Of a stretch of DNA of 32,000 nt, positions 2,185 through 30,598 are shown in pieces; positions within the stretch are counted from its first letter, which is position 1, and the number at the start of each line of letters is the position of its first letter. A program made the position numbers and the translations under genes. The stretch spans positions 1,290,001 through 1,322,000 of the forward strand of contig NZ_LN831039.1 in assembly GCF_001457595.1 (NCBI RefSeq), in the 5' to 3' direction. This DNA is from Mycolicibacterium smegmatis. GTDB taxonomy: Bacteria; Actinomycetota; Actinomycetes; Mycobacteriales; Mycobacteriaceae. The notes under the pieces are model-generated. The model did no database searches and was not told where the DNA came from. It saw only the letters and a program-made list of their open reading frames with translations.

Positions 2185-4560
2185 TCAGATCATGTCGTTC
2201 TTCGTCAGCCACCGCATGACGGGCCAGCCGACGAACACCGGCAGCCAGCAGGTCAGCACGCGGTAGAGCAGCACCGCGGGCACGCCGATCGCGGGCGGCA
2301 CACCGAACGCGGCCAGACCACCGATCAGGGCGGCCTCGACGGCACCGACACCACCGGGGGTGGGGGCGGCCGAGGCCAGGGTGCCGCCGATCATCGTGAC
2401 GACCGTGACGGTGACGAATGACGTGTCGCCGCCGAACGCCTCGACGCTGGCCCAGAGTGCCAGTGCGGCACCGAGAGTCGTGCCGGCCGCGCCGAGGACG
2501 ATGAGTATCAGGCGTTTCGGTTCGCGGGCGAGCTTGATGAGGTCTTCCCAGACCTCTTCGAGCTTGGGCCGCACGGCGGATGCGAGCCAGCGGCGCAGTT
2601 TCGGCACCGCGAGGAACGCCCCGACGAGACCGAGTGCCAGACCCGCGATGAGGTAGAGGATCGTCGCGCTGGGGACGAAGTGCGACAGGTCGGCCCGCGC
2701 ACCGGCCATGGTGGAGAAGAAGATCAGCAGGATCACGTGCACGATCACCTGCACCGACTGCTGCAGCGCCACGGCCGCGGTCGCACGCATGGTGCTCAGC
2801 CCGCCCTTCTGCAGGAACCGGGTGCTCAGCGCCAGGCCGCCGACACCGGCGGGCGTGGTGGTGGCGGCAAAGGTGTTGGCAATCTGCATGATCGACAGGT
2901 TGCGGAAACTCACCAGCCCGTCGGCGCACGCCCACAGCGCGGCCGCGGCGCCCACGTAGGTCAGCGCCGAGACCGTGAGCCCCATCAGCGCCCACGACCA
3001 GTTGGCGGTGCGCAGTTCGGAGAAGAACGTGGGCACGGTGCTGATGAACGGATACGCCACGTACACCAGCGCGATCAGCAGCACCAGCTGGATCACCTGG
3101 GTGCGGGTGAATCGGGTGATGGTCTCGGCCTCGATCTGATCGGCCCCGGTCTGGTGCTTGACCTCGTCGCGTGCCTGGCCCATCACCGCTTTGGCGTCGG
3201 GCACTGTGGCGCGCACCCGCGCGGGCACCGCGGCCTTGGTGAGCCTGCGCGACGCGGTGAGCACGGTGTCACGGCCGAACGCCTTGATTGCGGCACCGAC
3301 GGCCGACTGCGCGTCGTACAGCGCAGTGGTGGTGACGAGCAGTTGCGCGATGTCGGACTGCAATTGGGCGTCGGTGGCGCCGTATTCGGAGTTGCCGAAC
3401 CCGCCGAACAGCACCGCGCCGTCCTCGACGGTGATCTCCTTGCTGCGCAGATCGCCGTGGGCGATCTGGTGGTCGTGCAGCATGCGCAGCGCGTTCCACA
3501 CGCGCCCCACCGTGGCCTCGTCGGTGCACTGGTCCAACGGGGTGCCGCGTTTGCGGTTGTGCGCGTAGAGCGTCCAGCCACGGTCCAGCGCGGCCACCGA
3601 CATCGTCGACGTGCTCGCCAGGCCCAGGTCGCCGATCGCGATCGCCATCAGCGCGCGGTGTTCGACGGCGCGGCGCATCGAGGTCTGCAGGGGAGCGGTC
3701 TCGTCGCTGCGGAACCGGATCTTGCGCCACAACTGACGGAAGGCGCCGCCGCTGCGCTGGTTCGGTCCGTACAACTCGACGACGGCCACGGCGTCGGGGT
3801 CCTGCGACGCGGCCTCCAGCAGCAGTGGTCCGGCACCCGCGGGACGCACGACGGTGAACGACTGCACCTGGAACCCGCGGCGCATCAGCGCGCGCACGGC
3901 CCCGTCGAGCGGGACCTCCAGCGCGGGGGTGCCGACGACCCACACCACGAGCGCCCCGACGAACCAGCCCACGGCCAGACCCAGCAGTGAGCGGGCCGGC
4001 ACGACGGCGCTGACCACCAGGTGGATGGGCACGAACGCCAGCAGCAGCCCCCACCACCACCGGCGCAGCCGCTGAGGCAGCCACGGCCCGGACACCGTGA
4101 GCACCGCGGCGAGCATGCCGATCCAGCGTGGATCGTCGAGGAACTGCGAGAGTTGGCTGTCCAGGCGGTCACCGAGGTCGAAGTGCCACTGCGGTGCGGC
4201 GATGCCGTTGCCCGTGATAGACAGCGACAGCATCGTGATGAGACCCGCAGCGGCGTAGGCGCCCAGCAGTTTCCACTGCCGCGAGAAGACCAGGCTGACC
4301 AGGATCACGAACGGCAGCGCCACGATCGCGACGCTGTAGGCCAGATAGACCAGGTTGGACTGCGTGGGGGTGAGGACGCCGACGACCTCGGAGATCGACC
4401 GCTCCAACGCCACCCACTCGTAGCGGGTGATCAGCGAGCTCGCGATGACCGTGGCGAGAAAGAGGGACGCGAGCGTCAGACGCAGGATGTCGTTGGTGCG
4501 CCGGGACATGGGTTGCAGCAACTTCCCGGTGACAACGATGTCCCGTCCGTCAACGCGCAT
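2185..4560 (-). CDS. Large polytopic membrane protein: N-terminal TM bundle, central kinase-like domain, C-terminal LPG-synthase-TM/flippase-like (UPF0104) domain
   Basis: Track ORF 2185..4584. I prefer ATG 4560 (MRVDGRDIVV...), preceded by AAAGGGGGAA. There are about 6 N-terminal hydrophobic helices. The soluble middle carries HDHQIAHGDLRSKEITVEDGAVLFGGFG, a kinase-like catalytic-loop and DFG-like region. The C-terminus has about 8 TM helices ending in PTPGGVGAVEAALIGGL, the signature I associate with the MprF-type flippase-like family. Confidence 0.8.
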   Translation of the reverse strand: MRVDGRDIVVTGKLLQPMSRRTNDILRLTLASLFLATVIASSLITRYEWVALERSISEVVGVLTPTQSNLVYLAYSVAIVALPFVILVSLVFSRQWKLLGAYAAAGLITMLSLSITGNGIAAPQWHFDLGDRLDSQLSQFLDDPRWIGMLAAVLTVSGPWLPQRLRRWWWGLLLAFVPIHLVVSAVVPARSLLGLAVGWFVGALVVWVVGTPALEVPLDGAVRALMRRGFQVQSFTVVRPAGAGPLLLEAASQDPDAVAVVELYGPNQRSGGAFRQLWRKIRFRSDETAPLQTSMRRAVEHRALMAIAIGDLGLASTSTMSVAALDRGWTLYAHNRKRGTPLDQCTDEATVGRVWNALRMLHDHQIAHGDLRSKEITVEDGAVLFGGFGNSEYGATDAQLQSDIAQLLVTTTALYDAQSAVGAAIKAFGRDTVLTASRRLTKAAVPARVRATVPDAKAVMGQARDEVKHQTGADQIEAETITRFTRTQVIQLVLLIALVYVAYPFISTVPTFFSELRTANWSWALMGLTVSALTYVGAAAALWACADGLVSFRNLSIMQIANTFAATTTPAGVGGLALSTRFLQKGGLSTMRATAAVALQQSVQVIVHVILLIFFSTMAGARADLSHFVPSATILYLIAGLALGLVGAFLAVPKLRRWLASAVRPKLEEVWEDLIKLAREPKRLILIVLGAAGTTLGAALALWASVEAFGGDTSFVTVTVVTMIGGTLASAAPTPGGVGAVEAALIGGLAAFGVPPAIGVPAVLLYRVLTCWLPVFVGWPVMRWLTKNDMI

Positions 4561-4782: not shown

Positions 4783-6612
4783 GTGGACGCGACACCATTC
4801 GGGCACTATCAGCTGCAAAAGCTGATCGGCCGGGGTGGCATGGGTGAGGTCTATCAGGCCTACGACACCAAGACCCAGCGGATCGTCGCGCTGAAGGTTT
4901 TGCCGCCGCATCTGGCGCAGGATGCCTCGTTCCAGGACCGGTTCCGGCGGGAGTCGCACGCCGCGGCCGGTGTCAACGATCCACATGTGGTGCCGATCCA
5001 CGGGTTCGGCGAGATCGACGGCCGGCTGTATCTGGACATGCGGCTCATCGAGGGCCGCAACCTCGGCGCCATGCTGACCAGGGCCGACAAGCCGCTGGAC
5101 CCGGCGTTCGTCGTCGACATGATCGAGCAGGTCGCGACGGCGCTGGACGCCGCGCACCAGGCCGGGCTGATCCACCGCGACGTCAAACCGTCCAACATCC
5201 TCATCACCGACAACGACTTCGTCTATCTCATCGACTTCGGTCTGGCCCGCAGCGCGGGGGAGTCCGGCATGACCACCGCGGGCAGCACGCTGGGCACGCT
5301 GGCCTACATGGCGCCCGAGCGGTTCGACGCAGGCAAGGTCGATCCGCGCTCCGACATCTACGCGCTGGCGTGCGTGCTCTACGAGTGCCTCACCGGCGCA
5401 CGGCCCTATCCCGCCGACAGCCTCGAACAGCAGATCGCCGGGCACATGGTGTCCGCGCCGCCGCGGCCGTCGGACAAGGATCCGCGGCTCGCGGCGTTCG
5501 ACGACGTGATCGCCAAGGGTATGGCCAAGAAGCCCGCCAAGCGGTACCAGACCGCGGGGCGCCTCGCCGCGGCGGCGCGCGAAGCGCTCACGACGCCGGT
5601 GCTGCGCACCTCGGGCCGCTCGGGGCGGCACTCGGCACAGCGGGTGCACCGGTTGACGACCGCGCAGCGCACGCGTTCGCGGGTGCCGCGGCGCGTCGCG
5701 GTGATCGCGGGCGCCACGGTTCTGGTGGCCGCGCTGCTGTCGGTCGGGATGTGGCAGTTGCGCGACGGAAACTCTGCGGGTCGCGAGCCCGCGCTGGCCG
5801 ACACCGCGTCGACGACGGGGCCGGTTGAGGCGCCGACGGGCGCGGTGCCCGAGATCGCGGCGGCGGTGCCCGCGCACATCCGCGAGACCGGCCGGCTGGT
5901 GATCGGCGTCAACGTGCCCTACGCCCCCAACGAGTTCAAGAACTCCGACGGCGAGATCGTCGGCTTCGACGTCGACCTGATGAAGGCCGTCACCCGCACG
6001 CTGGGCCTGGTGCCCGACATCCGCGAGACCGGTTTCGAGGGCATCCTGCCGTCGGTGCGCGACGGCAGCTTCAACGTCGGCATGTCCTCGATCACCGACA
6101 CCGCCGAACGCGAGGAACTGGTCGACTTCGTCACCTACTTCCAGGCCGGCACGCTGTGGGCGCAGCGCACCGGATCCTCGGTGGACCCCGACGCGGCGTG
6201 CGGACTGCGAGTTGGCGTGGCGTACAGCACCATTCAGGAAGCCGAGGAGATCCCCGCCAAGAGCGACGCGTGCGTGGCCGCGGGGCTGCCGCCCATCGAG
6301 AAGGTCGTGCGCACGCATCAAGACGAGGTCACCGCGGCGCTGATCGCCGGTGAGGTCGACGCCATGACCGCCGACTCCCCGGTCACGGGCTTCGCGATCA
6401 AACTGTCCGGCGGCGCGCTCGCCCCGGCCGGTGAGGTGTTCGACTCCGCGCCGTACGGCTGGCCCGTGGCCAAGGATTCCGGGCTGGCCGAGCCGCTGCG
6501 CCTGGCGCTCGAGCACCTCATGGACACCGGCGAGTACCGCACCATCGCCACCATGTGGGGCGTCGAGAAGGGCATGATCAACCAGCCGGTGATCAACGGC
6601 GCCTTCCGGTAG
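4783..6612 (+). CDS. Hanks-type Ser/Thr protein kinase with one TM helix and an extracytoplasmic type-2 solute-binding (PBPb, amino-acid-binding-like) domain
   Basis: 609 aa. Kinase motifs are present: GRGGMGEVY, VALK, HRDVKPSNIL, DFGLAR, APE. A TM segment (VAVIAGATVLVAALLSVGMW) is followed by RLVIGVNVPYAPNEFKNSDGEIVGFDVDLMKAV...SSITDTAEREELVDFV, typical of polar amino-acid binding proteins. Confidence 0.9.
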   Translation: MDATPFGHYQLQKLIGRGGMGEVYQAYDTKTQRIVALKVLPPHLAQDASFQDRFRRESHAAAGVNDPHVVPIHGFGEIDGRLYLDMRLIEGRNLGAMLTRADKPLDPAFVVDMIEQVATALDAAHQAGLIHRDVKPSNILITDNDFVYLIDFGLARSAGESGMTTAGSTLGTLAYMAPERFDAGKVDPRSDIYALACVLYECLTGARPYPADSLEQQIAGHMVSAPPRPSDKDPRLAAFDDVIAKGMAKKPAKRYQTAGRLAAAAREALTTPVLRTSGRSGRHSAQRVHRLTTAQRTRSRVPRRVAVIAGATVLVAALLSVGMWQLRDGNSAGREPALADTASTTGPVEAPTGAVPEIAAAVPAHIRETGRLVIGVNVPYAPNEFKNSDGEIVGFDVDLMKAVTRTLGLVPDIRETGFEGILPSVRDGSFNVGMSSITDTAEREELVDFVTYFQAGTLWAQRTGSSVDPDAACGLRVGVAYSTIQEAEEIPAKSDACVAAGLPPIEKVVRTHQDEVTAALIAGEVDAMTADSPVTGFAIKLSGGALAPAGEVFDSAPYGWPVAKDSGLAEPLRLALEHLMDTGEYRTIATMWGVEKGMINQPVINGAFR

Positions 6613-6616
6613 AGCT

Positions 6617-7297
6617 CTACAGCGCGTTGCGACCCGCGATGGTCTTCGCGAGCTGCGCGGTCTCGCGGTCGCCGACGCCGAAGCCCGTGATGCGGACGTC
6701 GACCACCACGTCGCCTTCGGCCAGGATCGCGCGACGCGTGATGCGTTCGGTCGGGTCGATCGGCTGGTCGTTGGTGACGTCGACGCCGTCGACGACGCGG
6801 GGCGCCGCCAGCGTCTGGATCTCGGTGGTCTCACCGCCGTCGAAACTGAACGTCAGGACATCGCCCGCGCACCGGCGCCAGATGGCGACGGTGTTGTCCA
6901 CCAGCGCCTGGGCCGCGGCGGGGGTGTGGAAGCGCGTCACGGCCTGGTCGACTTCGAGTTCGTCGGCATCGTCGCTGAGCTGGTTCTCGCGGAACTGCCG
7001 GTAGCCGCTGTCGCGGTACACCCAGTCCATCGCGTTGCCCGCGACCACCATGCATTCCTGCCGTGAGATGGGCTCGAACGTCTCGTTCTTCGTCGGGGTC
7101 CGGTACGCGGTCTTGGGGCGGACGTCGACGCCCACGATGGTCCTGATCTCTGATTCGCTCGCCAGCATGCTGCCCAGCACGTCGACCTCGGGTCCGCCGT
7201 CGGGCACCGGGGTCTGCGTGTGGCACGCGACGAGGGAGAATCCGGCTGTCGCGAGTACGCCGAGTCGTTTCGCCGTGTGGGCCAGAGCAGTGGTCAC
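6617..7297 (-). CDS. Lipoprotein with PknH-like extracellular sensor domain (LppR/LpqQ type)
   Basis: 226 aa with a GTG start preceded by GAAAGGGGA. Signal peptide plus lipobox (FSLVAC). The body resembles the mycobacterial PknH_C sensor-domain family, with Cys pairs and the motifs ECMVVAGN and WRRCAG. Confidence 0.7.
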   Translation of the reverse strand: MTTALAHTAKRLGVLATAGFSLVACHTQTPVPDGGPEVDVLGSMLASESEIRTIVGVDVRPKTAYRTPTKNETFEPISRQECMVVAGNAMDWVYRDSGYRQFRENQLSDDADELEVDQAVTRFHTPAAAQALVDNTVAIWRRCAGDVLTFSFDGGETTEIQTLAAPRVVDGVDVTNDQPIDPTERITRRAILAEGDVVVDVRITGFGVGDRETAQLAKTIAGRNAL

Positions 7298-7352: not shown

Positions 7353-7499
7353 AGTTCCACCGATCGGGGGATGCGCTTTTCGTCCGGGCAGCGGTCCGGT
7401 CGTGGGATAACCCCGGCTGCCGCGGCGCCGGATAGTTGTCTCAACGTCCTCACACGGCGGGAACCACACCGAAAAGCCTTCCCCGGCAAAGGAGTCGAT
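7353..7499 (+). promoter_or_regulatory. Conserved upstream leader, copy 1 (near-palindrome TCCACCGATCGGGGGA at 7356-7371)
   Basis: Shares ordered identical blocks with 17784-17933: GTTCC(A/C)CCGATCGGGGGA, GGTCCGGTCGT(G/C)GGATA, TCTCAACG, CGAAAAGCCTT, CAAAGGAGTCGA(T/A)ATG. Palindrome-to-ATG distance is 129 nt here and 132 nt in copy 2. Confidence 0.6.
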
Positions 7500-7649
7500 A
7501 TGAACCCCATCGTCCGACGCATCGTCGCCACGTTGACCATCACCGCCGCCCCGTTCCTGCTTGTGGTCGGTGTGGCCACGGCAAACACCGAGCCCCATCA
7601 GGCGGTGTCTCAGGCCACCCACCAGGTCACCCACGTCTCCCAGAACTAG
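7500..7649 (+). CDS. Small secreted peptide (49 aa) with a Sec-type signal; mature ~21 aa contains three His
   Basis: This is the internal ATG of track ORF 7371..7649, preceded by AAAGGAG at good spacing. Sequence is MNPIVRRIVATLTITAAPFLLVVGVATA / NTEPHQAVSQATHQVTHVSQN. It is a paralogue of the peptide at 17934 in both signal peptide and leader, and is followed by a terminator hairpin. Confidence 0.6.
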   Translation: MNPIVRRIVATLTITAAPFLLVVGVATANTEPHQAVSQATHQVTHVSQN

Positions 7650-7660
7650 CCAGGTAGAGA

Positions 7661-7697
7661 GAAGGGCCCGGACGCCGCGCGCGTCCGGGTTCTTTGT
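7661..7697 (+). terminator. Intrinsic terminator after the small peptide gene
   Basis: Stem CCCGGACGC (7667-7675) / GCGTCCGGG (7681-7689), extendable with A-U and G-U pairs, followed by TTCTTTGTG. Confidence 0.6.
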
Positions 7698-7729
7698 GCT
7701 CGAGCCGGGGTATGTGCCTAGGCAAGCAC

Positions 7730-7776
7730 CGCGGGCGGTTGGCGATAATTTGAACTTGAGAGGCTCGCGGGCGGTT
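7730..7776. repeat. 11-bp direct repeat CGCGGGCGGTT x2 upstream of the ketoacyl synthase gene
   Basis: CGCGGGCGGTT occurs at 7730-7740 and 7766-7776, a 36-bp period. Each copy is followed by an AT-richer -10-like element (GGCGATAAT and CTATTGTGG). The ATG lies 67 nt downstream of the second copy, at 7843. Confidence 0.35.
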
Positions 7777-7842
7777 CTATTGTGGTGAAGACAGACACCG
7801 CAGCAGGACCCTCGCAAACAGGAAAAACGAAAGCGCATTCCG

Positions 7843-9093
7843 ATGGTTGCGAAGACCACTGGCAATGGACTACCTGACGTCGTCGTCACCGCCGTCGCGT
7901 CGACGACCTCGCTCGCGCCTCATGCCGAGGACACGTGGAAGCTGCTGTTGGAGGGCCGAAGCGGCATCCGCGCCCTCGACAGGCCCTTCGTCGAGGAATT
8001 CGACTCGCCGGTCCGCATCGGCGGGCAGCTCACCGAGGCGTTCGCCGACAAACTCGGCCGTGTTGAACAGCACCGGCTTTCGTACATGGGCCAGATGTCG
8101 ACGGTGCTCGGGCGCCGGTTGTGGGAGATCGCGGGCAACCCCGAGGTGGACACCCGGCGGTTGATGGTGTCGATCGGCATGGCGCTGGGCACCACCGAGG
8201 AACTCATCCTGCAGTACGACCTGTGGAAGGCCAAAGGGCTGCGCGCCGTGCCTCCCACGGCGATCCAGAAGTACATGCCCAACGCGCCCGCGGCCGCCGT
8301 CGGGCTGGACCGCAAGGCCAAGGCCGGCATCATGAGCCCGATCATGGCCGACGCCTCGGGCGCGGCGGCCATCGCGCACGCATGGCGCGAGATCATCCTC
8401 GGCGACGCGGACATCGCGATCTGCGGCGGTGTCGAGACCTGGATCGAAGCCGTGCCCGTCGGCGCGTTCAGCCAGCTGGGCATGCTCTCGACCTACAACG
8501 ACGATCCCCCCGCGGCCTGCCGCCCGTTCGACAAGGACCGCGACGGCATGGTGCTCGGGGAGGCCGGGGCGCTGATGCTCGTCGAGACCGAGGAACACGC
8601 CAAGGCCCGCGGCGCGCCCATCCTGGCGCGTCTGATGGGTGTGGGGATGACCAACGACAGCTACGACATCGTCAAACCCGATCCCGACGGGCAGCTGGCC
8701 GGCGACGCGATCCGCCGGGCGATCGAACTGGCCGGGCTCACCCCGGGCGACATCGACCACATCAACGCGCACGCCACCGGCACCGACTTCGGCGATCTCG
8801 CCGAGGCCCGCGCCATCCACAACGTGCTGGGCAGTCATCGGCCCTCGGTGTACGCGCCCAAGGCCGCGCTGGGTCACTCGCTGGGATCCGCCGGTGCGGT
8901 GGAGGCCGTGCTGACCGTGCAGACGCTGCGCGACGGCATCGTGCCTGCCACGCTCAACGTGAAGAACCCCGACCCCGAGATCGACCTGGACGTCGTGACC
9001 GATCAGCCCAGGAGTGAGCACTTCCGCTACGCGCTGAGCAATTCGTTCGGCCTCGGCGGCAACAACGTGGTGCTGGCGTTCGGGGCGGCCTAA
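7843..9093 (+). CDS. KasA/KasB-like beta-ketoacyl-ACP synthase paralogue with Asp in place of the active-site Cys
   Basis: 416 aa, collinear with my recollection of M. tuberculosis KasA. Shared segments include DVVVTAV, AIAHAWREIILGDADIAICGGVE, RPFDKDRDGMVLGEAGALMLVETEEHAKARGA, INAHATGT, APKAALGHSLG, PDPEIDLDVV and SNSFGLGGNNVVLAF. The nucleophile position reads SPIMADASG (GAC at 8350-8352), whereas KasA has PVSACSSG. Confidence 0.9.
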   Translation: MVAKTTGNGLPDVVVTAVASTTSLAPHAEDTWKLLLEGRSGIRALDRPFVEEFDSPVRIGGQLTEAFADKLGRVEQHRLSYMGQMSTVLGRRLWEIAGNPEVDTRRLMVSIGMALGTTEELILQYDLWKAKGLRAVPPTAIQKYMPNAPAAAVGLDRKAKAGIMSPIMADASGAAAIAHAWREIILGDADIAICGGVETWIEAVPVGAFSQLGMLSTYNDDPPAACRPFDKDRDGMVLGEAGALMLVETEEHAKARGAPILARLMGVGMTNDSYDIVKPDPDGQLAGDAIRRAIELAGLTPGDIDHINAHATGTDFGDLAEARAIHNVLGSHRPSVYAPKAALGHSLGSAGAVEAVLTVQTLRDGIVPATLNVKNPDPEIDLDVVTDQPRSEHFRYALSNSFGLGGNNVVLAFGAA

Positions 9094-9974
9094 CCGCTCT
9101 TCGTGTAGGCGAACTGCGCGACCTCGGAGATCCCGCGGCGGAAGAAGTCGGCGCAGCCGGTCAGGTAGTGCATGTACCGGTCGTAGACCTCTTCCGACGT
9201 CGCGGCGATCGCGGCGTCGCGTTGCGCGGACAGGTTGTCGGCCCACGTGTCGAGGGTGCGGACATAGTGCGGGTTCATCACGGTCACATCGGCGGTGTGA
9301 AACCCTGCGGCACCGGAGAAGTCACGCATGTCGTCGTCGGATGGCAGCTGCCCGCCCGGGAAGATCTCCTTGTAGATGAACCGCGTGAACTTCATGTCGC
9401 TGAGCGTCACCGCGATGCCGTGCTCACGCCAGTAGTTGATGGGATGGGTGAAGATCGTCTCGATCACCATGCGCCCGTCGTCGGGCATCACCCGGTAGGT
9501 GGTGTCGAAAAACGCCTTGTACCTCGACTTCCCGAACGCCTCGAACGCCTCGATGCTCACGATTCGGTCGACCGGTGCGTCGAACTGCTCCCAGCCCTGC
9601 AGGCACACGAAGTGTGACCGCCGCGTGTCGATCTGATCCAGAAGCTGTTGGCAGAACGCGTACTGGTTCTTGCTCAGGGTGAGGCCGATGACGTTGACGT
9701 CGTACTTCTCGATCGCGCGTTTCATCAACGCGCCCCAGCCGCAACCGATGTCGAGCAGCGTCATTCCCGGTTGCAGGGCGAGCTGGTCCAGTGCGAGGTC
9801 GATCTTGGCCATTTGCGCCTGTTCGAGTGTCATGTCGTCGCGCTCGTAGTAGGCACAGCTGTAGGTGCGGGACGGATCCTGGAACAGCCCGAAGAAGTCG
9901 TCGGACAGATCGTAGTGCGCCTGGACTTCCTCGAAATACGGCCGCATCTGGGCAGTGCCGACGCCGTCAGCCAT
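9090..9974 (-). CDS. Mycolic acid SAM-dependent methyltransferase/cyclopropane synthase family (CmaA/MmaA/UmaA-like), divergent member
   Basis: 294 aa. Contains [46 protein letters not shown] and LLDIGCGWG (SAM motif I). It has SIEAFEAFG where the family usually has SIGAFEHFG, and VIETIF where it usually has LLHTI. Its ATG overlaps the upstream gene's stop by 1 nt (TGATG). Confidence 0.9.
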   Translation of the reverse strand: MADGVGTAQMRPYFEEVQAHYDLSDDFFGLFQDPSRTYSCAYYERDDMTLEQAQMAKIDLALDQLALQPGMTLLDIGCGWGALMKRAIEKYDVNVIGLTLSKNQYAFCQQLLDQIDTRRSHFVCLQGWEQFDAPVDRIVSIEAFEAFGKSRYKAFFDTTYRVMPDDGRMVIETIFTHPINYWREHGIAVTLSDMKFTRFIYKEIFPGGQLPSDDDMRDFSGAAGFHTADVTVMNPHYVRTLDTWADNLSAQRDAAIAATSEEVYDRYMHYLTGCADFFRRGISEVAQFAYTKSG

Positions 9975-10897
9975 CAGGCCACGCTCTTCTCACAGGTGAA
10001 CTGGCAGACGTCGGTGTAGCCGTCGCGGAACAGGTCCGCGCACCCCTTGAGGTACTTGAGGTAGCGCTCGTAGACCTCTTCGGACGTGATCTCGATGGCC
10101 TGGTCCTTCTTGGCCTCCAGGTTGGCCGCCCATGTGTCGAGGGTGCGCACGTAGTGCGGCCGCAGGCGCTGCTTGCGCGTGACGGTGAAACCGGCCTCGG
10201 TGGCACGGTCTTCGACCATCGCGATCAGCGGGATGCGGCCACCCGGGTAGATCTCGGTGACGATGAACCGGAAGAACCGCATCAACGACATCGTCGTCGG
10301 CAGCCCCATCTGCTCGACCTCTTCCTTGCTGGTCGAGACGATGGTGTGCAGCAGCATCACGCCGTCGTCGGGCATCAGCTCGAAGGTCTTCTTGAAATAG
10401 TCTGCGTACTTCTCGAATCCGAAATGTTCGAATGCCCCGATCGACACGACACGGTCGACCGGCTCGTCGAAGTCCTCCCACGCCTGCAGGCGAACTTCTT
10501 TGCGGCGTGGGCTGTCAGATTCGGCGAAGCGCTGTTCGATGTGCGCGAGCTGATTGTGCGACAACGTCAGCCCGATGACGTTGACGTCGTATTTCTCGAC
10601 CGCGCGCATGATGGTCGAGCCCCACCCGCACCCGATGTCGAGCAAAGTCATGCCCGGTTGCAGGCCCAGCTTGCCAAGTGCCAGATCGACTTTCGCCATC
10701 TGGGCCTCTTCGAGCGTCATGTCGTCGCGTTCGAAGTACGCGCAACTGTAGGTCTGCGTGGGGTCCTGCCACAGCCGGAAGAACTCGTTCGACAGGTCGT
10801 AGTGCGAACGGACTTCGTCTGCTGTTGATCCGTGACGCTCGCCGGGCGGAGCTCCGACCTTGACCGCGATGTTCGATTTCTGTGGCGTTTCTTTCAC
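9974..10897 (-). CDS. Mycolic acid SAM-dependent methyltransferase/cyclopropane synthase family (CmaA2/MmaA-like), canonical motifs
   Basis: 307 aa with a GTG start. Contains [95 protein letters not shown] and [12 protein letters not shown]. Confidence 0.9.
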
Positions 10898-17588: not shown

Positions 17589-17783
17589 CGCGTCGCCGGC
17601 TCGGTGATACGAGCCACGCCACCACAGCGGCGGTGATCCCAGAAGGGAACGCAACTTCTCATGCCCCTGTGACCTCGGGGAAACAGGGCGAAGTGCTCTG
17701 CCGTGTGGTGGCGTGCCCTGGCCTGTGCCCGTGCGCGTCGACCGCGTGAAACCCAGTCAACGCCTCTGGGCGCACGGTGTCAA

Positions 17784-17933
17784 CGTTCCCCCGATCGGGG
17801 GACACGGGTTTCATCCGGTGCGTGGTCCGGTCGTCGGATACGGCCGCGCGCCGCAACGCGGCATTCTTATCTCAACGCGCCGGACAGGCCGCCGACAACA
17901 AAACGAAAAGCCTTATCCGACAAAGGAGTCGAA
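17784..17933 (+). promoter_or_regulatory. Conserved upstream leader, copy 2 (perfect 16-bp palindrome TCCCCCGATCGGGGGA at 17787-17802)
   Basis: Same ordered sequence blocks as 7353-7499 (see that feature). It ends in CAAAGGAGTCGAAATG, providing the SD and start for the His-rich peptide. Confidence 0.6.
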
Positions 17934-18143
17934 ATGACGATGATCGCCCGTACCGCTGGTTTCGCCGCCGCTCTCGCCGCCCCCGCCCTGATCTTCCTGG
18001 GCGCCGCGACGGCCGACGCAGAATCCTCGGTGAGCAACTTCGGGCCGTCGGTCACCCACCACGACACGTTCCCGCACCAGGATCACGTACCCACCCCGGG
18101 AACCACGGAGCACCACCACCACCAGTACAACCGCGGACGCTGA
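17934..18143 (+). CDS. Small secreted His-rich peptide (69 aa; predicted mature 40 aa with 8 His)
   Basis: In frame inside track ORF 17703..18143. ATG 17934 follows AAAGGAG. Sequence is MTMIARTAGFAAALAAPALIFLGAATADA / ESSVSNFGPSVTHHDTFPHQDHVPTPGTTEHHHHQYNRGR. A strong terminator follows. Confidence 0.65.
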   Translation: MTMIARTAGFAAALAAPALIFLGAATADAESSVSNFGPSVTHHDTFPHQDHVPTPGTTEHHHHQYNRGR

Positions 18144-18159
18144 GCCGGGGGATAGGGGG

Positions 18160-18196
18160 GAGAGCCCGGACCCACACAGGGTCCGGGCTCTTTTCC
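18160..18196 (+). terminator. Intrinsic terminator after the His-rich peptide gene
   Basis: 12-bp stem GAGCCCGGACCC (18162-18173) / GGGTCCGGGCTC (18179-18190) with a 5-nt loop, then TTTTCCTGTT. Confidence 0.7.
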
Positions 18197-18230
18197 TGTT
18201 CACGGACCGTTCGCGCGGCGGGCTCCTAGG

Positions 18231-19601
18231 GTGGGGAAGGTGAGCACCCCGGGGACGCTTCCGCCAGGGCCGCCGCTACCGGCCGTCGTGCAGACCGCGA
18301 TGATGCTGCGGTACTGGTCCCGGTTCGTCTCGGCCTGTCGGCGCCGCTACGGCGACGTGTTCACGCTGCGGATCTCCTCGATGGGCACCTGGGTGTACCT
18401 GGCCGATCCGAACGACATCAAGACCGTGTTCGCCGGGGACCCGACGGTGTTCCACGCCGGTGAGGCCAACTCCATGCTCAGCGGTCTACTGGGCGACACC
18501 TCGGTGCTGGTGATCGACGAGGACGTGCACCGCGACCGGCGTCGCCTCATGCTCGCACCGTTCGCGCGCGACGCCGTCGCCCGCCAGACCGGCGTGATGG
18601 CCGAGGTCGCCGCCGCCAACATCGCGGGTTGGCCCGTCGGCACCCCGTTCCCGGTCGCACCCAAGATGGCCGCGATCGCACTTGAGGTGATCCTGCGGAC
18701 CGTGATCGGCGCGACCGATCCGGCCCGGCTCGCCGCATTGCGCCAGGTCATGCCGCAACTGCTCGGCATCGGACCGTGGCAGTCGCTGGCCGTCGCGAGC
18801 CCCGGTCTGCAACGCCGGCGCCCGTGGCGCACCCTGCAGCGCAACCTCGCCGAGGCCGACCGGCTGCTCTACGCCGAGATCGCCGCGTGCCGGGCCGACC
18901 CCCACCTGGCGTCGCGCCCCGACGCGCTCGCGATGCTGGTGCGCGCCGCCAACGACGACGGCCGCACCATGACAGACCGGGAACTGCGCGATCAGCTGAT
19001 GACGCTGCTGGTCGCCGGTCACGAGACCACCGCGACCGGGCTGTCGTGGACACTCGAACGGCTCATCCGCCACCCGGCGGTCCTGGACAAGGCCGTGGCC
19101 GCCGCGCGCTCCGACAAGGGCTCCGGCGAGGCCTACCTCGACGCGGTGGTGCGCGAATCCCTGCGCATCCGCCCCGTGGTGTTCGAGGCCGGCCGCGTGC
19201 TCACCGAACCCGTCGAACTGGGCGGATACCTCCTGCCGGCCGGGACATTGGTCGCGCCGAGCATCGGACTGGTGCACGCCAGCGCCGACGTCTATCCCGA
19301 CCCGGACCGGTTCGAACCGGACCGCATGCTGGCGTCCACCCAGACACCCAGCACGTGGCTGCCGTTCGGCGGCGGGAACCGCCGCTGTCTCGGCGCCACG
19401 TTCGCGCTCGTCGAGATGCGCGTTGTGCTGCGCGAAATCCTGCGCCGTGTCGACCTTTTCGCCACCACCGCGCGCGGTGAGAAGCAACGGCTCAAGCACG
19501 TCACGATGATCCCGCACCGCGGCGGGCGGATCTGTGTGCGGGGGCTCCGGGATGTGGCACCGGCTCCGATGACCTGTCCGGCTGAGGCGCGGCGTGCGTG
19601 A
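18231..19601 (+). CDS. Cytochrome P450 monooxygenase
   Basis: 456 aa. Contains the I-helix AGHETTA, ExxR (ESLRIRP) and the heme loop FGGGNRRCLGATFALVEM. Start is GTG 18231 or GTG 18240. Confidence 0.9.
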   Translation: MGKVSTPGTLPPGPPLPAVVQTAMMLRYWSRFVSACRRRYGDVFTLRISSMGTWVYLADPNDIKTVFAGDPTVFHAGEANSMLSGLLGDTSVLVIDEDVHRDRRRLMLAPFARDAVARQTGVMAEVAAANIAGWPVGTPFPVAPKMAAIALEVILRTVIGATDPARLAALRQVMPQLLGIGPWQSLAVASPGLQRRRPWRTLQRNLAEADRLLYAEIAACRADPHLASRPDALAMLVRAANDDGRTMTDRELRDQLMTLLVAGHETTATGLSWTLERLIRHPAVLDKAVAAARSDKGSGEAYLDAVVRESLRIRPVVFEAGRVLTEPVELGGYLLPAGTLVAPSIGLVHASADVYPDPDRFEPDRMLASTQTPSTWLPFGGGNRRCLGATFALVEMRVVLREILRRVDLFATTARGEKQRLKHVTMIPHRGGRICVRGLRDVAPAPMTCPAEARRA

Positions 19602-21885: not shown

Positions 21886-23256
21886 GTGCTTCCTTCACGT
21901 TCTACGTTGACGAGCTGGAATCCCGAATCTCTAGGTGCCTCTGCATCGTCAATTGACACTGCAGCACAATCTGTGGCTGGAGCGGTGCGCGGGATCGACC
22001 AAGCCTGTCAGGAAATGCCCGTGACCCAATCGTGGTCGGGCAAGTCCCATGAGGCGGCGGCAGCCATGTTCAAACGTGCCGACCGTGATGCCGCGAAATT
22101 CTCCGGCTACGCGAACGGTGTCGCTGCTGCGCTCAGGGGTGGTGCGGAATCGATCGGGTCCGCGCGGAGCGCGCTACTTGCGAAGGCGGAGCAGCTAGAC
22201 ACTGGGCCTCTCAACGTCACGGATCAGTGGGTGGTACTGATTGACCCTGCATACATGTCGGCCGACGAATTGGCGAAGCTACAAGAACTGGCTATGGAGG
22301 AGCAGGGTGTCGTGAACCGTATGCTCAGTGCCGTTGGTGACGCGGACGAAGCGACCGCGAACGCGGTGTCCTCTGCGGGAAAAGAGTTTGGGTTCGTCGA
22401 GCCAGGACCGCCGAAGACGGGCCTCGACTTGATTGTTCCGTCAGCCCAACGACCAACTGATCAGGTTCCGGACCCGAGAACTCCAATCGGGGTAATCGGC
22501 CAGGAAGCGATCAGGTCAGCTGATGAACAGCAGAACATCCGAGAAATCACGAAGTCAACGAACGAACACGGCGAAGAACTGACGACTGTGATCAAGCAGG
22601 ATGGCAGCAAGTCGGTTCTGAAGCGCATGAATCCGTTCGACTGGCCGAGCAAGCAGAACTTTTATCAGATCGAGGAGTACGACAAAAACGGTGACTTCGT
22701 CGCGCGGACTAGTTCTTGGCACAGCGCTGGCAACGACTGCGACTACACATCAATCACATACGCCGATAACTCCAATCTCACGATGTCTATGGACTCATCG
22801 GGGCATCGGACCGTGGGATTTACAACTGCCGAGGGTCATCACAGTCAAGTACCTGTCGACTTGATCGACAGAATGTCGACGTCGACCGGTGCAGCGATGT
22901 CCGGGTTGGAGAAGCACATAGGGCGTGGCGGTTCGCTGCCGATGGTGACCGCAGAATCTGTCGAAAACATCGGAAAAAATCTGAAATGGGGTGGCCCAGC
23001 CCTTACCGCAGCGACCACGGTATTCGACATGGCGATGGCTGAATCAGGTAAAGACAGGTGCATTGCGCTTGTCGCGGGCGTGGCTGGCGGTGGTGGTGGC
23101 TGGGGCGCGGCAGAATTCGGGGCCTGGGTCGGCGCATTCGGCGGTCCCGTTGCGCCTGTCACCGTTCCCGCCGGCGCCCTCGCATTTGGGCTTGTGGGTG
23201 GTTTCGGTGGTTCTAAGCTCGGTCAGTTCATTGGAGAGGTCGTATGTCCGTCCTGA
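21886..23256 (+). CDS. WXG-domain protein with C-terminal glycine-zipper module (candidate ESX-exported membrane-active toxin)
   Basis: 456 aa, starting 3 nt after the EspC-like gene. The N-terminal helical domain carries W-S-G (TGG at 22033). The low-GC middle region matches nothing I recognise. The C-terminus reads ...CIALVAGVAGGGGGWGAAEFGAWVGAFGGPVAPVTVPAGALAFGLVGGFGGSKLGQFIGEVVCPS. Confidence 0.7.
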   Translation: MLPSRSTLTSWNPESLGASASSIDTAAQSVAGAVRGIDQACQEMPVTQSWSGKSHEAAAAMFKRADRDAAKFSGYANGVAAALRGGAESIGSARSALLAKAEQLDTGPLNVTDQWVVLIDPAYMSADELAKLQELAMEEQGVVNRMLSAVGDADEATANAVSSAGKEFGFVEPGPPKTGLDLIVPSAQRPTDQVPDPRTPIGVIGQEAIRSADEQQNIREITKSTNEHGEELTTVIKQDGSKSVLKRMNPFDWPSKQNFYQIEEYDKNGDFVARTSSWHSAGNDCDYTSITYADNSNLTMSMDSSGHRTVGFTTAEGHHSQVPVDLIDRMSTSTGAAMSGLEKHIGRGGSLPMVTAESVENIGKNLKWGGPALTAATTVFDMAMAESGKDRCIALVAGVAGGGGGWGAAEFGAWVGAFGGPVAPVTVPAGALAFGLVGGFGGSKLGQFIGEVVCPS

Positions 23257-29389: not shown

Positions 29390-29688
29390 GTGGGGTCTGC
29401 GGCGCTGTTCGGCGGCTCAGCGACGCGGACTGATGCCGCGAGGATGCCTAGAACCAGGATGAGTGGAACCGAAACGGGCCATGCGATCAGCAACAACATT
29501 GGACCCCACATCGTGAGGTTCACGATGAACAGGCGAACGTACTCGCCTGTTGGCACTGGGCTGGTGTCATTGCTGCCGGCGATCATGCCGACGGACAAGC
29601 CGATCCCCGCCACCGTGCAGACGAACGCGGTTGCCGCTGCCGTGCAGGCGAGCACGCGGCGTGAGCTGGGCTTGGCGAATCTGATCAT
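29386..29688 (-). CDS. Small two-TM membrane protein, hypothetical
   Basis: 100 aa, MIRFAKPSSRRVLACTAAATAFVCTVAGIGLSVGMIAG...MWGPMLLLIAWPVSVPLILVLGILAAS... Its ATG overlaps the upstream stop as ATGA. The region has lower GC. Confidence 0.5.
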   Translation of the reverse strand: MIRFAKPSSRRVLACTAAATAFVCTVAGIGLSVGMIAGSNDTSPVPTGEYVRLFIVNLTMWGPMLLLIAWPVSVPLILVLGILAASVRVAEPPNSAADPT

Positions 29689-30438: not shown

Positions 30439-30598
30439 GGTCTCCTCCATCCACCTCGGCGGGACGGGACTGGTGTATCGCGGCAGGCGTTCATGGCGGG
30501 CGACAATGCAAAACCGCCACCACGTACACGAACGCGATTGCCGCTGCCGTGTGGGCGAGTATGCGACGCATCTCGTTCTGGATCTGATCATCGGCAAC

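Follow-up and report, generated by a model that had tools for sequence, protein, structure and literature searches.

A recurrent 82-bp module upstream of small exported His-rich peptide genes in mycobacteria reads as a two-site promoter-operator

The window analyzed here, 32,000 nt of Mycolicibacterium smegmatis DNA, contains two copies of a leader of about 150 nt, each followed by a tiny gene. Judged by their conservation, both leaders are a real, selected element that marks a shared regulon. In our best reading, the upstream part of about 82 bp acts as DNA rather than RNA, and this module would be the promoter-operator of a previously undescribed regulon of small exported His-rich peptides. 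That the module works at the DNA level, be it by activation or by repression, we hold to be very probable; that it is a promoter plus operator subject to activation seems moderately probable. The sequence-only reading had proposed a shared regulon controlled by either an operator plus promoter or a cis-acting RNA leader. The element turned out to be real, under selection and common to unlinked loci, and the operator-plus-promoter option fits it; the RNA option was not supported.

Copy 1 of the leader occupies 7354-7499 and copy 2 occupies 17785-17933, positions at which the duplication had been placed previously, and all five of the conserved blocks quoted at that time are present. Within the window, these blocks were found at the two leader sites only. 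In a global alignment, the copies are identical at 108 of 150 positions. Their local alignment score is 64, compared to 9.76 ± 1.55 (maximum 17) for 1000 dinucleotide shuffles (z ∼35) and a maximum of 17 for 1500 random 150-nt pieces of the same window, and hence the similarity is well above chance. The palindrome at the upstream end of each copy stops at 7371 in copy 1, 129 nt short of the start codon, and at 17802 in copy 2, 132 nt short of it; these distances are exactly those claimed earlier. Tiny ORFs do lie 3′ of both leaders; their start codons, at 7500 and 17934, are each one base off the position implied earlier. Leader 2 was also compared with that of L032, a near-identical metagenome contig that encodes the same peptide. 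Thirteen differences fall within 17826-17910, clustered in the variable parts of the leader, and none in the 465 nt that follow (17911-18374). Such a pattern resembles a mosaic made by recombination, or the outcome of conversion among paralogous leaders.

The ORF of copy 1 (7500-7649, plus strand) encodes a peptide of 49 aa, MNPIVRRIVATLTITAAPFLLVVGVATANTEPHQAVSQATHQVTHVSQN, and that of copy 2 (17934-18143, plus strand) a His-rich peptide of 69 aa, MTMIARTAGFAAALAAPALIFLGAATADAESSVSNFGPSVTHHDTFPHQDHVPTPGTTEHHHHQYNRGR, which ends in ...TEHHHHQYNRGR. By inspection, all peptides downstream of the element have a positive N-terminus, a hydrophobic core and an AxA cleavage motif, the hallmarks of small exported proteins, and these are visible in both window peptides, in agreement with their earlier description as signal-peptide genes. 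For the copy 1 peptide, whose homologues P0010-P0014 are 64-96% identical to it, cleavage is likely to occur after VATA and would leave a 21-aa mature part with three His residues. The copy 2 peptide belongs to a family with the pattern FPHQD-x-P-x-PGT-xx-HHHHQ. A twin arginine (T/V/I-R-R-I/V-A/T) precedes the hydrophobic core in most family members and may signify Tat export, but of this pair window copy 2 and its nearest relatives have kept just one arginine. Clusters of His are seen at the C-termini (HHHHQ, FHQRH, YHHHG, TVHH, THQVTH). Judged by their composition, the mature peptides, of ∼20-45 residues and exported by the Sec or Tat route, plausibly bind metal in the cell envelope. This would make a metal-related signal plausible as well. 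Searches of Pfam and NCBIfam with eight of the peptides returned no family, and a literature search on His-rich small secreted mycobacterial peptides found nothing specific to them.

Each ORF is followed directly by an intrinsic terminator, that is, a GC-rich stem-loop and a U-rich tract. In copy 1, a GC-rich stem and then UUCUUUGUG are found at 7661..7698 on the plus strand (−29.8 kcal/mol, z = −3.0); in copy 2, a 13-bp stem and a U tract are found at 18161..18196, also on the plus strand (−44.7 kcal/mol, z = −6.4). With a leader, an ORF and a terminator at each locus, both cassettes are self-contained single-gene units.

Copies of the element were gathered by three independent routes: contigs retrieved by peptide homology, a pattern scan of genomes (CCGRTYGGGGGA-N6-TTTC-N14-CCGGTCG) and a pattern scan of metagenomes that made no demand on the left half of the palindrome. 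The sequence-only reading had called for a search of related genomes and a list of downstream genes, and this search yielded 26 non-redundant modules from Mycolicibacterium and Mycobacterium genomes and metagenomes, several of them found solely via peptide homology; we refer to their alignment as A4. All contigs fetched via peptide homology, including those found by protein similarity only, carry the module (nhmmer E 1e-11 to 1e-21). In the metagenome scan, the left half of the palindrome, though unrequired, was present in every match of mycobacterial context and absent from chance matches in foreign coding DNA. Like the window, two contigs hold two complete cassettes each, 5 kb apart in L022 (modules 6066-6159 and 1130-1223, both on the minus strand) and 2.3 kb apart in L048 (modules 3563-3656 and 5844-5937). 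On the evidence of these loci, the cassette of module, peptide gene and terminator recurs across environmental mycobacteria. The module had no match in a plasmid collection (blastn, distant mode) and a single chance match among viral contigs.

The genes downstream are more diverse than the module itself. The HHHHQ family comprises at least 417 clusters at 90% identity in the protein database, and the named clusters come from many Mycolicibacterium and Mycobacterium species, all of them hypothetical or mis-named. The homologues of the peptides that bear a source name are from M. goodii. Several HHHHQ members of ∼70 aa (P0016, P0025, P0047, P0035) go under the name ‘ABC-type glycerol-3-phosphate transport system substrate-binding protein’ or else ‘heme A synthase’ in public records, which is evident mis-annotation, with the signal peptide as the probable cause. 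The module also lies 5′ of four further small signal-peptide ORFs, whose mature parts are unrelated (...SSFHQRHAAEVQSWYR, ...PGWYHHHGIGRLEMFNR, ...HSAITVHH and the copy-1 type). At three loci, L016, L018 and L038, it precedes a gene for a 295-aa acyl-CoA thioesterase (4HBT_3 / 4HBT_3C), through an unrelated UTR (modules at L016:6648-6731, minus strand; L018:5300-5383; L038:2758-2841, minus strand). At these loci the thioesterase gene sits between an SDR gene and a cysteine-desulfurase-like gene. If the module drives the thioesterase gene, the regulon is wider than the peptides.

Across the 26 copies of A4, the 82-bp module is nearly free of indels. Its order is palindrome O1 (TCCCCCGATCGGGGGA), an invariant TTC, a second site O2 (CCGGTCG-N3-GAYA), 28 nt of spacer, and a hexamer with invariant A and T. 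In copy 1, all on the plus strand, O1 is the near-palindrome TCCACCGATCGGGGGA at 7356..7371, the TTTC element, of which TTC is invariant, lies at 7378..7381 (A4 columns 25-28), O2 is CCGGTCGTGGGATA at 7396..7409, and the hexamer, GATAGT, lies at 7431..7436. By the same alignment, copy 2 has a perfectly palindromic O1 at 17787..17802, the TTTC element at 17809..17812, O2 (CCGGTCGTCGGATA) at 17827..17840 and the hexamer CATTCT at 17862..17867, likewise on the plus strand. Invariant positions of O1 are T3, C4, C5, C7, T11, G13-G17 and A18 (site TCCnCCGATCGGGGGA); its right half, GGGGGA, is the same in 26/26 copies, and position 4 of the left half is variable, being A in copy 1. The other invariants are T26, T27, C28 and C31, followed by C43, G45, T47, G53 and A54 of O2 (CCGGTCG-N3-GA), and A79 and T83 of the hexamer. 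Between O2 and the hexamer there are 28 nt in every copy, the sequence of this spacer being free. O1 and O2 are 36 bp apart, center to center, a distance that is shifted by 1 nt in only two copies. Unlike the module, the region after the hexamer shows frequent indels.

When modules were scanned with a weight matrix of O1 (columns 7-20, CCGATCGGGGGACA), the highest-scoring other site fell, for 24 of the 26, at O2 and on the same strand. With this matrix, O2 scores 8.8 bits on average versus −2.2 ± 3.9 in shuffles. One copy, L022B, shows the O1 core unaltered in O2 (CCGATCG), with GTTC in place of TTTC. By the matrix comparison, O2 is a degenerate, half-palindromic, direct copy of the O1 core, and this resemblance suggests that one protein occupies both sites. 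The limits of conservation are sharp. Similarity begins 2-3 nt 5′ of O1 (the L014 and L020 orthologues are unrelated further upstream), and in the most divergent group, the three thioesterase loci, it goes no further than the hexamer. Such limits would be expected if the element is a promoter, but not if it is an RNA.

In M. smegmatis, 79% of promoters have ANNNT at −13 to −6, there is no −35 consensus, position +1 is A or G, and −1 is mostly C (PMC6448022). The modules resemble this arrangement. The A and T of the (C/G)ANNNT hexamer (A79, T83) are invariant in the 26 copies, although neither search pattern required them, and ‘CA’ follows 6-7 nt 3′ of the hexamer in most copies. What is found, then, is an ANNNT hexamer 6-13 nt before a predicted purine start preceded by C, in a promoter type for which a −35 hexamer is not required. 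Together, hexamer and CA read as the −10 element and start of a mycobacterial SigA-type promoter. We place +1 at A7443 and A17874 because the hexamer spacing and the CA fit the M. smegmatis promoter rules. Given this start, O1 would be centered at −79.5 and the O2 core at −43.5, with O2 ending at −34; the TTTC element of copy 1 would lie at −65 to −62. The module thus has the layout of a two-site promoter, with two related putative sites, the proximal one at a fixed position beside the −35 region. The base before ANNNT, at predicted position −12, is C in nearly all copies, a non-preferred base there, and the −35 hexamer is missing; VANNNT promoters are weaker than TANNNT promoters in M. smegmatis (PMC6448022).

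A sigma-70-like scan, which demands a −35 hexamer, reported no promoter at the leaders. When the supplement of the M. smegmatis transcription-start paper was searched for the conserved blocks, only unrelated coding matches were obtained. Alternative sigma factors were considered as well. SigF promoters have the consensus GTTT-N15-17-GGGTA and SigE/H promoters GGAAC-N16-17-GTT; compared by eye with these and with the known consensus for SigC/D/G/J/K/L/M, the block spacing fits none.

The predicted start lies downstream of three of the five blocks, past the palindrome and GGTCCGGTCGTSGGATA and inside TCTCAACG, so that the transcribed blocks would be CGAAAAGCCTT and CAAAGGAGTCGA only. In copy 1, the predicted 5′ UTR has 57 nt (7443..7499, plus strand; start taken from the spacing) and holds CGAAAAGCCTT and AAGGAG at 7489-7494; in copy 2 it has 60 nt (17874..17933, plus strand), with the Shine-Dalgarno sequence AAGGAG at 17923-17928. 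Both predicted UTRs carry GAAAAGCC together with this ribosome-binding site, and UTR lengths predicted across the family range from 36 to 69 nt, mostly 53-60. We take the transcribed blocks, GAAAAGCC and CAAAGGAGTCGA-N-ATG, for UTR and ribosome-binding sequence that has been passed down in the family of paralogous cassettes. Two other coding interpretations of the leaders were rejected. N-terminally extended ORFs (7371-7649; the 100-aa call P0001) conflict with UTR indels that are not multiples of three and with conservation of the Shine-Dalgarno sequence and ATG. A minus-strand ORF over leader 2 (17659-17856), with high GC3, does not keep its frame in relatives and is spurious.

Each cassette would accordingly comprise a regulated promoter, a 5′ UTR of ∼57-60 nt, the gene for a small exported His-rich peptide and, last, an intrinsic terminator. 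In the mechanism we propose, a candidate dimeric transcription factor would bind the palindromic O1 tightly and, by cooperativity, help the same factor onto the weak, half-palindromic O2 over the −35 region; from O2 it would contact RNA polymerase and switch on an otherwise weak promoter, in the manner of class-II-type activation. The strong distal site, the precisely placed weak proximal site, the missing −35 hexamer and the conserved C at −12 all point to an activator-dependent promoter. One caveat here is that 36 bp is a non-integer number of helical turns, which counts against this explanation.

Alternatively, the same promoter could be held off by a metal-sensing repressor of the CsoR/RcnR, ArsR or TetR type, with O1 and O2 as operators, which would block RNA polymerase at O2 until released by its ligand. 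We take this alternative seriously but regard it as rather unlikely. O2 does cover the −35 region, as such a repressor would need to, and the products are His-rich; however, it is the weak site that is proximal, the strong one being found well upstream, at −87 to −72, and the single-base precision between O2 and the hexamer is unneeded for steric blocking. Against repression stands, too, the non-optimal core promoter, which lacks a −35 hexamer and almost always has C instead of T at −12. C-tract/G-tract palindromes are typical of CsoR-family operators, and the 16-bp O1 is such a palindrome, like type-2 CsoR/RcnR operators. Operators of the CsoR/RcnR class combine a G/C tract with AT-rich inverted-repeat flanks, overlap the core promoter and usually lie beside the regulator gene. 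O1, by comparison, has a C5-GATC-G5 tract but G/C-rich flanks and an upstream position, and no CsoR/RcnR-type regulator gene was seen linked to the module in ∼30 loci. Many actinobacterial metal sensors are repressors. In M. tuberculosis, the Cu-responsive repressor RicR controls genes that include the small ORFs socAB, via a palindromic promoter motif (PMC3944814).

More generally, no regulator gene of any kind recurs beside the module among the ∼30 loci, whose neighbors vary. The linked candidates each occur in one lineage only, namely a MarR-PDZ protein (L021), an OmpR-type two-component system (L048/L049), an ECF sigma factor (L047) and a LysR protein (L048). The familiar sites of CRP, GlnR, AldR, LexA, IdeR, Zur and MerR-type regulators do not match the module. 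The Cmr motif, TGTCA-N6-TGACA (PMC4705688), does not match it either. A full-text literature search with the O1 sequence and its sub-strings returned no relevant paper.

Activation from O1 and O2 and repression at O2 both treat the conserved sequence as DNA. A quite different idea is that transcription begins at an unconserved promoter beyond the leader and runs through all of its ∼150 nt, which would then act as a structured cis-regulatory RNA such as a riboswitch or attenuator. We consider this idea very improbable and already disfavored. No Rfam family matched at the gathering score anywhere in the window, and even at E ≤10 the two loci gave only sub-threshold matches to unrelated families. 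The sequence-only reading had seen a sign of conserved structure in a GC-rich hairpin of different sequence at the same place in both copies, but in 18 non-redundant copies the folding of this spacer is no more stable than that of shuffled sequence (mean z = −0.39), with only 1/18 below the 5% tail. For the 18 full leaders, RNAalifold returned a 7-pair helix between the O1 and O2 cores (−8.5 kcal/mol, covariation term −0.26) with zero compensatory pairs. Conserved RNA structure therefore finds neither an Rfam match nor a compensatory change. A 6-bp hairpin can be drawn at the palindrome (−12 kcal/mol in copy 2), yet one pair is unpaired, without compensation, in 8/26 copies, the fourth pair having C, A, T or G facing an invariant G; covariation alone, it should be said, cannot separate a sequence-conserved palindrome from an invariant RNA hairpin. 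In leader 2, a terminator-like hairpin and T-rich run were flagged (a match at 17843-17862 plus ATTCTTATCT, together 17843-17872). This candidate was rejected: its stem is the non-conserved GC-rich spacer, no better than shuffles, and its T run consists of the −10 hexamer and the bases right behind it. Several copies, all in one clade, do carry a CCGG-N5-7-CCGG stem-loop just after the predicted start (+4 to +19). It is absent from window copy 1, and while it is paired in 77% of cells, its covariation is not significant (41/500 shuffles as high). At ∼760-790 of L032, which is closely related to copy 2, the UTR carries CGCCGAACAGA twice as a direct repeat in the place of the CCGG...CCGG stem-loop of other copies. 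Also at odds with an RNA are the near-absence of indels over 82 nt, which is unlike RNA loops, the lack of a conserved promoter upstream of O1, and the pairing of the module with an unrelated UTR and gene at the three thioesterase loci.

Instead of binding a protein, O1 could also be a hairpin that works as a bidirectional terminator or insulator and keeps read-through out of the cassette, leaving only the downstream sequence as promoter. Its place at the extreme 5′ edge of the conserved region, its GC-rich palindromic nature and, in several loci (L010, L011, L016), its position directly after the stop codon of a co-oriented gene would all suit this role. But it is the sequence of O1 that is conserved and not its pairing, the mismatched stem is weak (−6.4 kcal/mol, z = −1.1 in copy 1), no U tract follows directly, and a terminator leaves unexplained why the O1 core recurs as O2 36 bp downstream. 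The chances of this alternative seem slim. Finally, that the leader similarity is a mere remnant of recent duplication or gene conversion between paralogous cassettes, of no regulatory meaning, is most improbable: the signal peptides and UTRs of the two window genes are paralogous and paired cassettes also occur in L022 and L048, but conservation is block-wise with saturated divergence between the blocks, and the same blocks are kept across many species and across peptide families without a common mature sequence, a pattern that, on our alignments, already contradicts it.

The surroundings of the two cassettes consist of cell-envelope and lipid genes, encoding a PknH_C lipoprotein, a KAS, two CMAS paralogues, a fatty-acid desaturase and a P450. 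With its start 58 nt from the palindrome of copy 1, the divergent ORF for the lipoprotein (minus strand, 6617-7297; Pfam E = 2.4e-35 for PknH_C) does lie close to this copy, as had been pointed out, but it is not part of the element, being absent in relatives. In M. goodii and another relative (L010, L011), the cassette comes directly after the kinase gene, with no PknH_C lipoprotein gene at the syntenic place. The window counterpart of that kinase gene (Ser/Thr kinase; Pkinase plus SBP_bac_3; 4783-6612) lies on the other side of the lipoprotein gene from cassette 1. From this synteny, the lipoprotein gene is a lineage-specific insertion or loss. Downstream of cassette 1, the only sigma-70-like promoter match in the copy-1 region (7756-7783; TTGAGA-16-TATTGT) lies between the peptide terminator and the KAS gene, which probably has its own promoter there. 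This stand-alone KAS gene (7843-9093) adjoins the two CMAS genes, tandem paralogues for mycolic-acid cyclopropane synthases (9090-9974 and 9974-10897, minus strand; 71-77% DNA identity, offset 887 nt). Elsewhere in the window, a 456-aa ORF (21886-23256) carries a WXG100 domain at its N-terminus (E = 3.3e-6, slightly above the Pfam cut-off) and could be a type VII secretion substrate-like protein, and a 55-nt repeat (29607-29661 / 30514-30568; 82% identical, 907 nt apart) is probably the mark of a pair of neighboring paralogous genes on the minus strand.

The regulon, on this evidence, would be of an ordinary and familiar kind, tied to a sizeable, uncharacterized family of exported peptides. 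Its 82-bp module with two operator-like sites is a clean regulon marker, and it also delimits a large family of small peptides, secreted by mycobacteria, that are unannotated or mis-annotated. More tentatively, we suggest that fast-growing, environmental mycobacteria possess an undescribed regulon in which several unrelated families of tiny exported His-rich peptides and at least one acyl-CoA thioesterase share one rigid two-site promoter and answer to one sensor-regulator, perhaps as a system for metal buffering or delivery in the envelope whose parts are turned on together. Once found, the regulator and the signal it senses would give function to hundreds of ‘hypothetical’ small ORFs and could show how environmental mycobacteria manage metals, or other stress, in the cell envelope. 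There is also a warning here for annotation: a conserved upstream region that ends at a −10 element should not be called an RNA motif.

How does the module compare to known systems? Like actinobacterial cis-regulatory RNAs in Rfam, the leader lies upstream of an ORF and measures ∼150 nt; unlike them, it has no model match or covariation, and its conserved part is mostly upstream of the predicted start. With the RicR/CsoR copper regulons (PMC3944814) it has in common a palindromic promoter motif at unlinked loci and targets that include tiny ORFs of unknown function. RicR regulon genes, except ricR itself, are restricted to pathogenic mycobacteria (PMC3944814), however, whereas the module occurs in environmental, fast-growing species, and its peptides are exported and His-rich, with no search finding a relation to SocA/SocB. 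Typical M. smegmatis SigA promoters (PMC6448022) show the same ANNNT at −12 to −7, absence of a −35 consensus, C at −1 and A at +1. The module departs from them in the base before ANNNT, almost always C where T is preferred, and in its two conserved upstream sites at fixed spacing.

The closest documented parallel is the DevR (DosR) regulon of M. tuberculosis (PMC3177182). The genes driven by the module are not DosR-regulon genes, and the sites differ in detail. The Dev box is GGGACT-N2-AGTCCC (PMC3177182); inspection of A4 shows that the module does not fit this consensus, its halves being everted (GTCCC...GGGAC) and 8 bp apart, even though the DevR half-site GGGAC resembles the end of O1 (GGGGGAC). 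Moreover, the sites of the module are 36 bp apart, center to center, rather than adjacent and in phase. The parallel is one of architecture. DevR promoters have at least two boxes each, strong and weak, which are bound cooperatively, with the proximal box 33-34 bp from the start (PMC3177182). Similarly, the module combines a weak core promoter with at least two related sites, one primary (strong) and one secondary (weak), which would be bound cooperatively by a putative factor, and its proximal site sits right beside the −35 region with constant spacing, O2 ending at predicted position −34.
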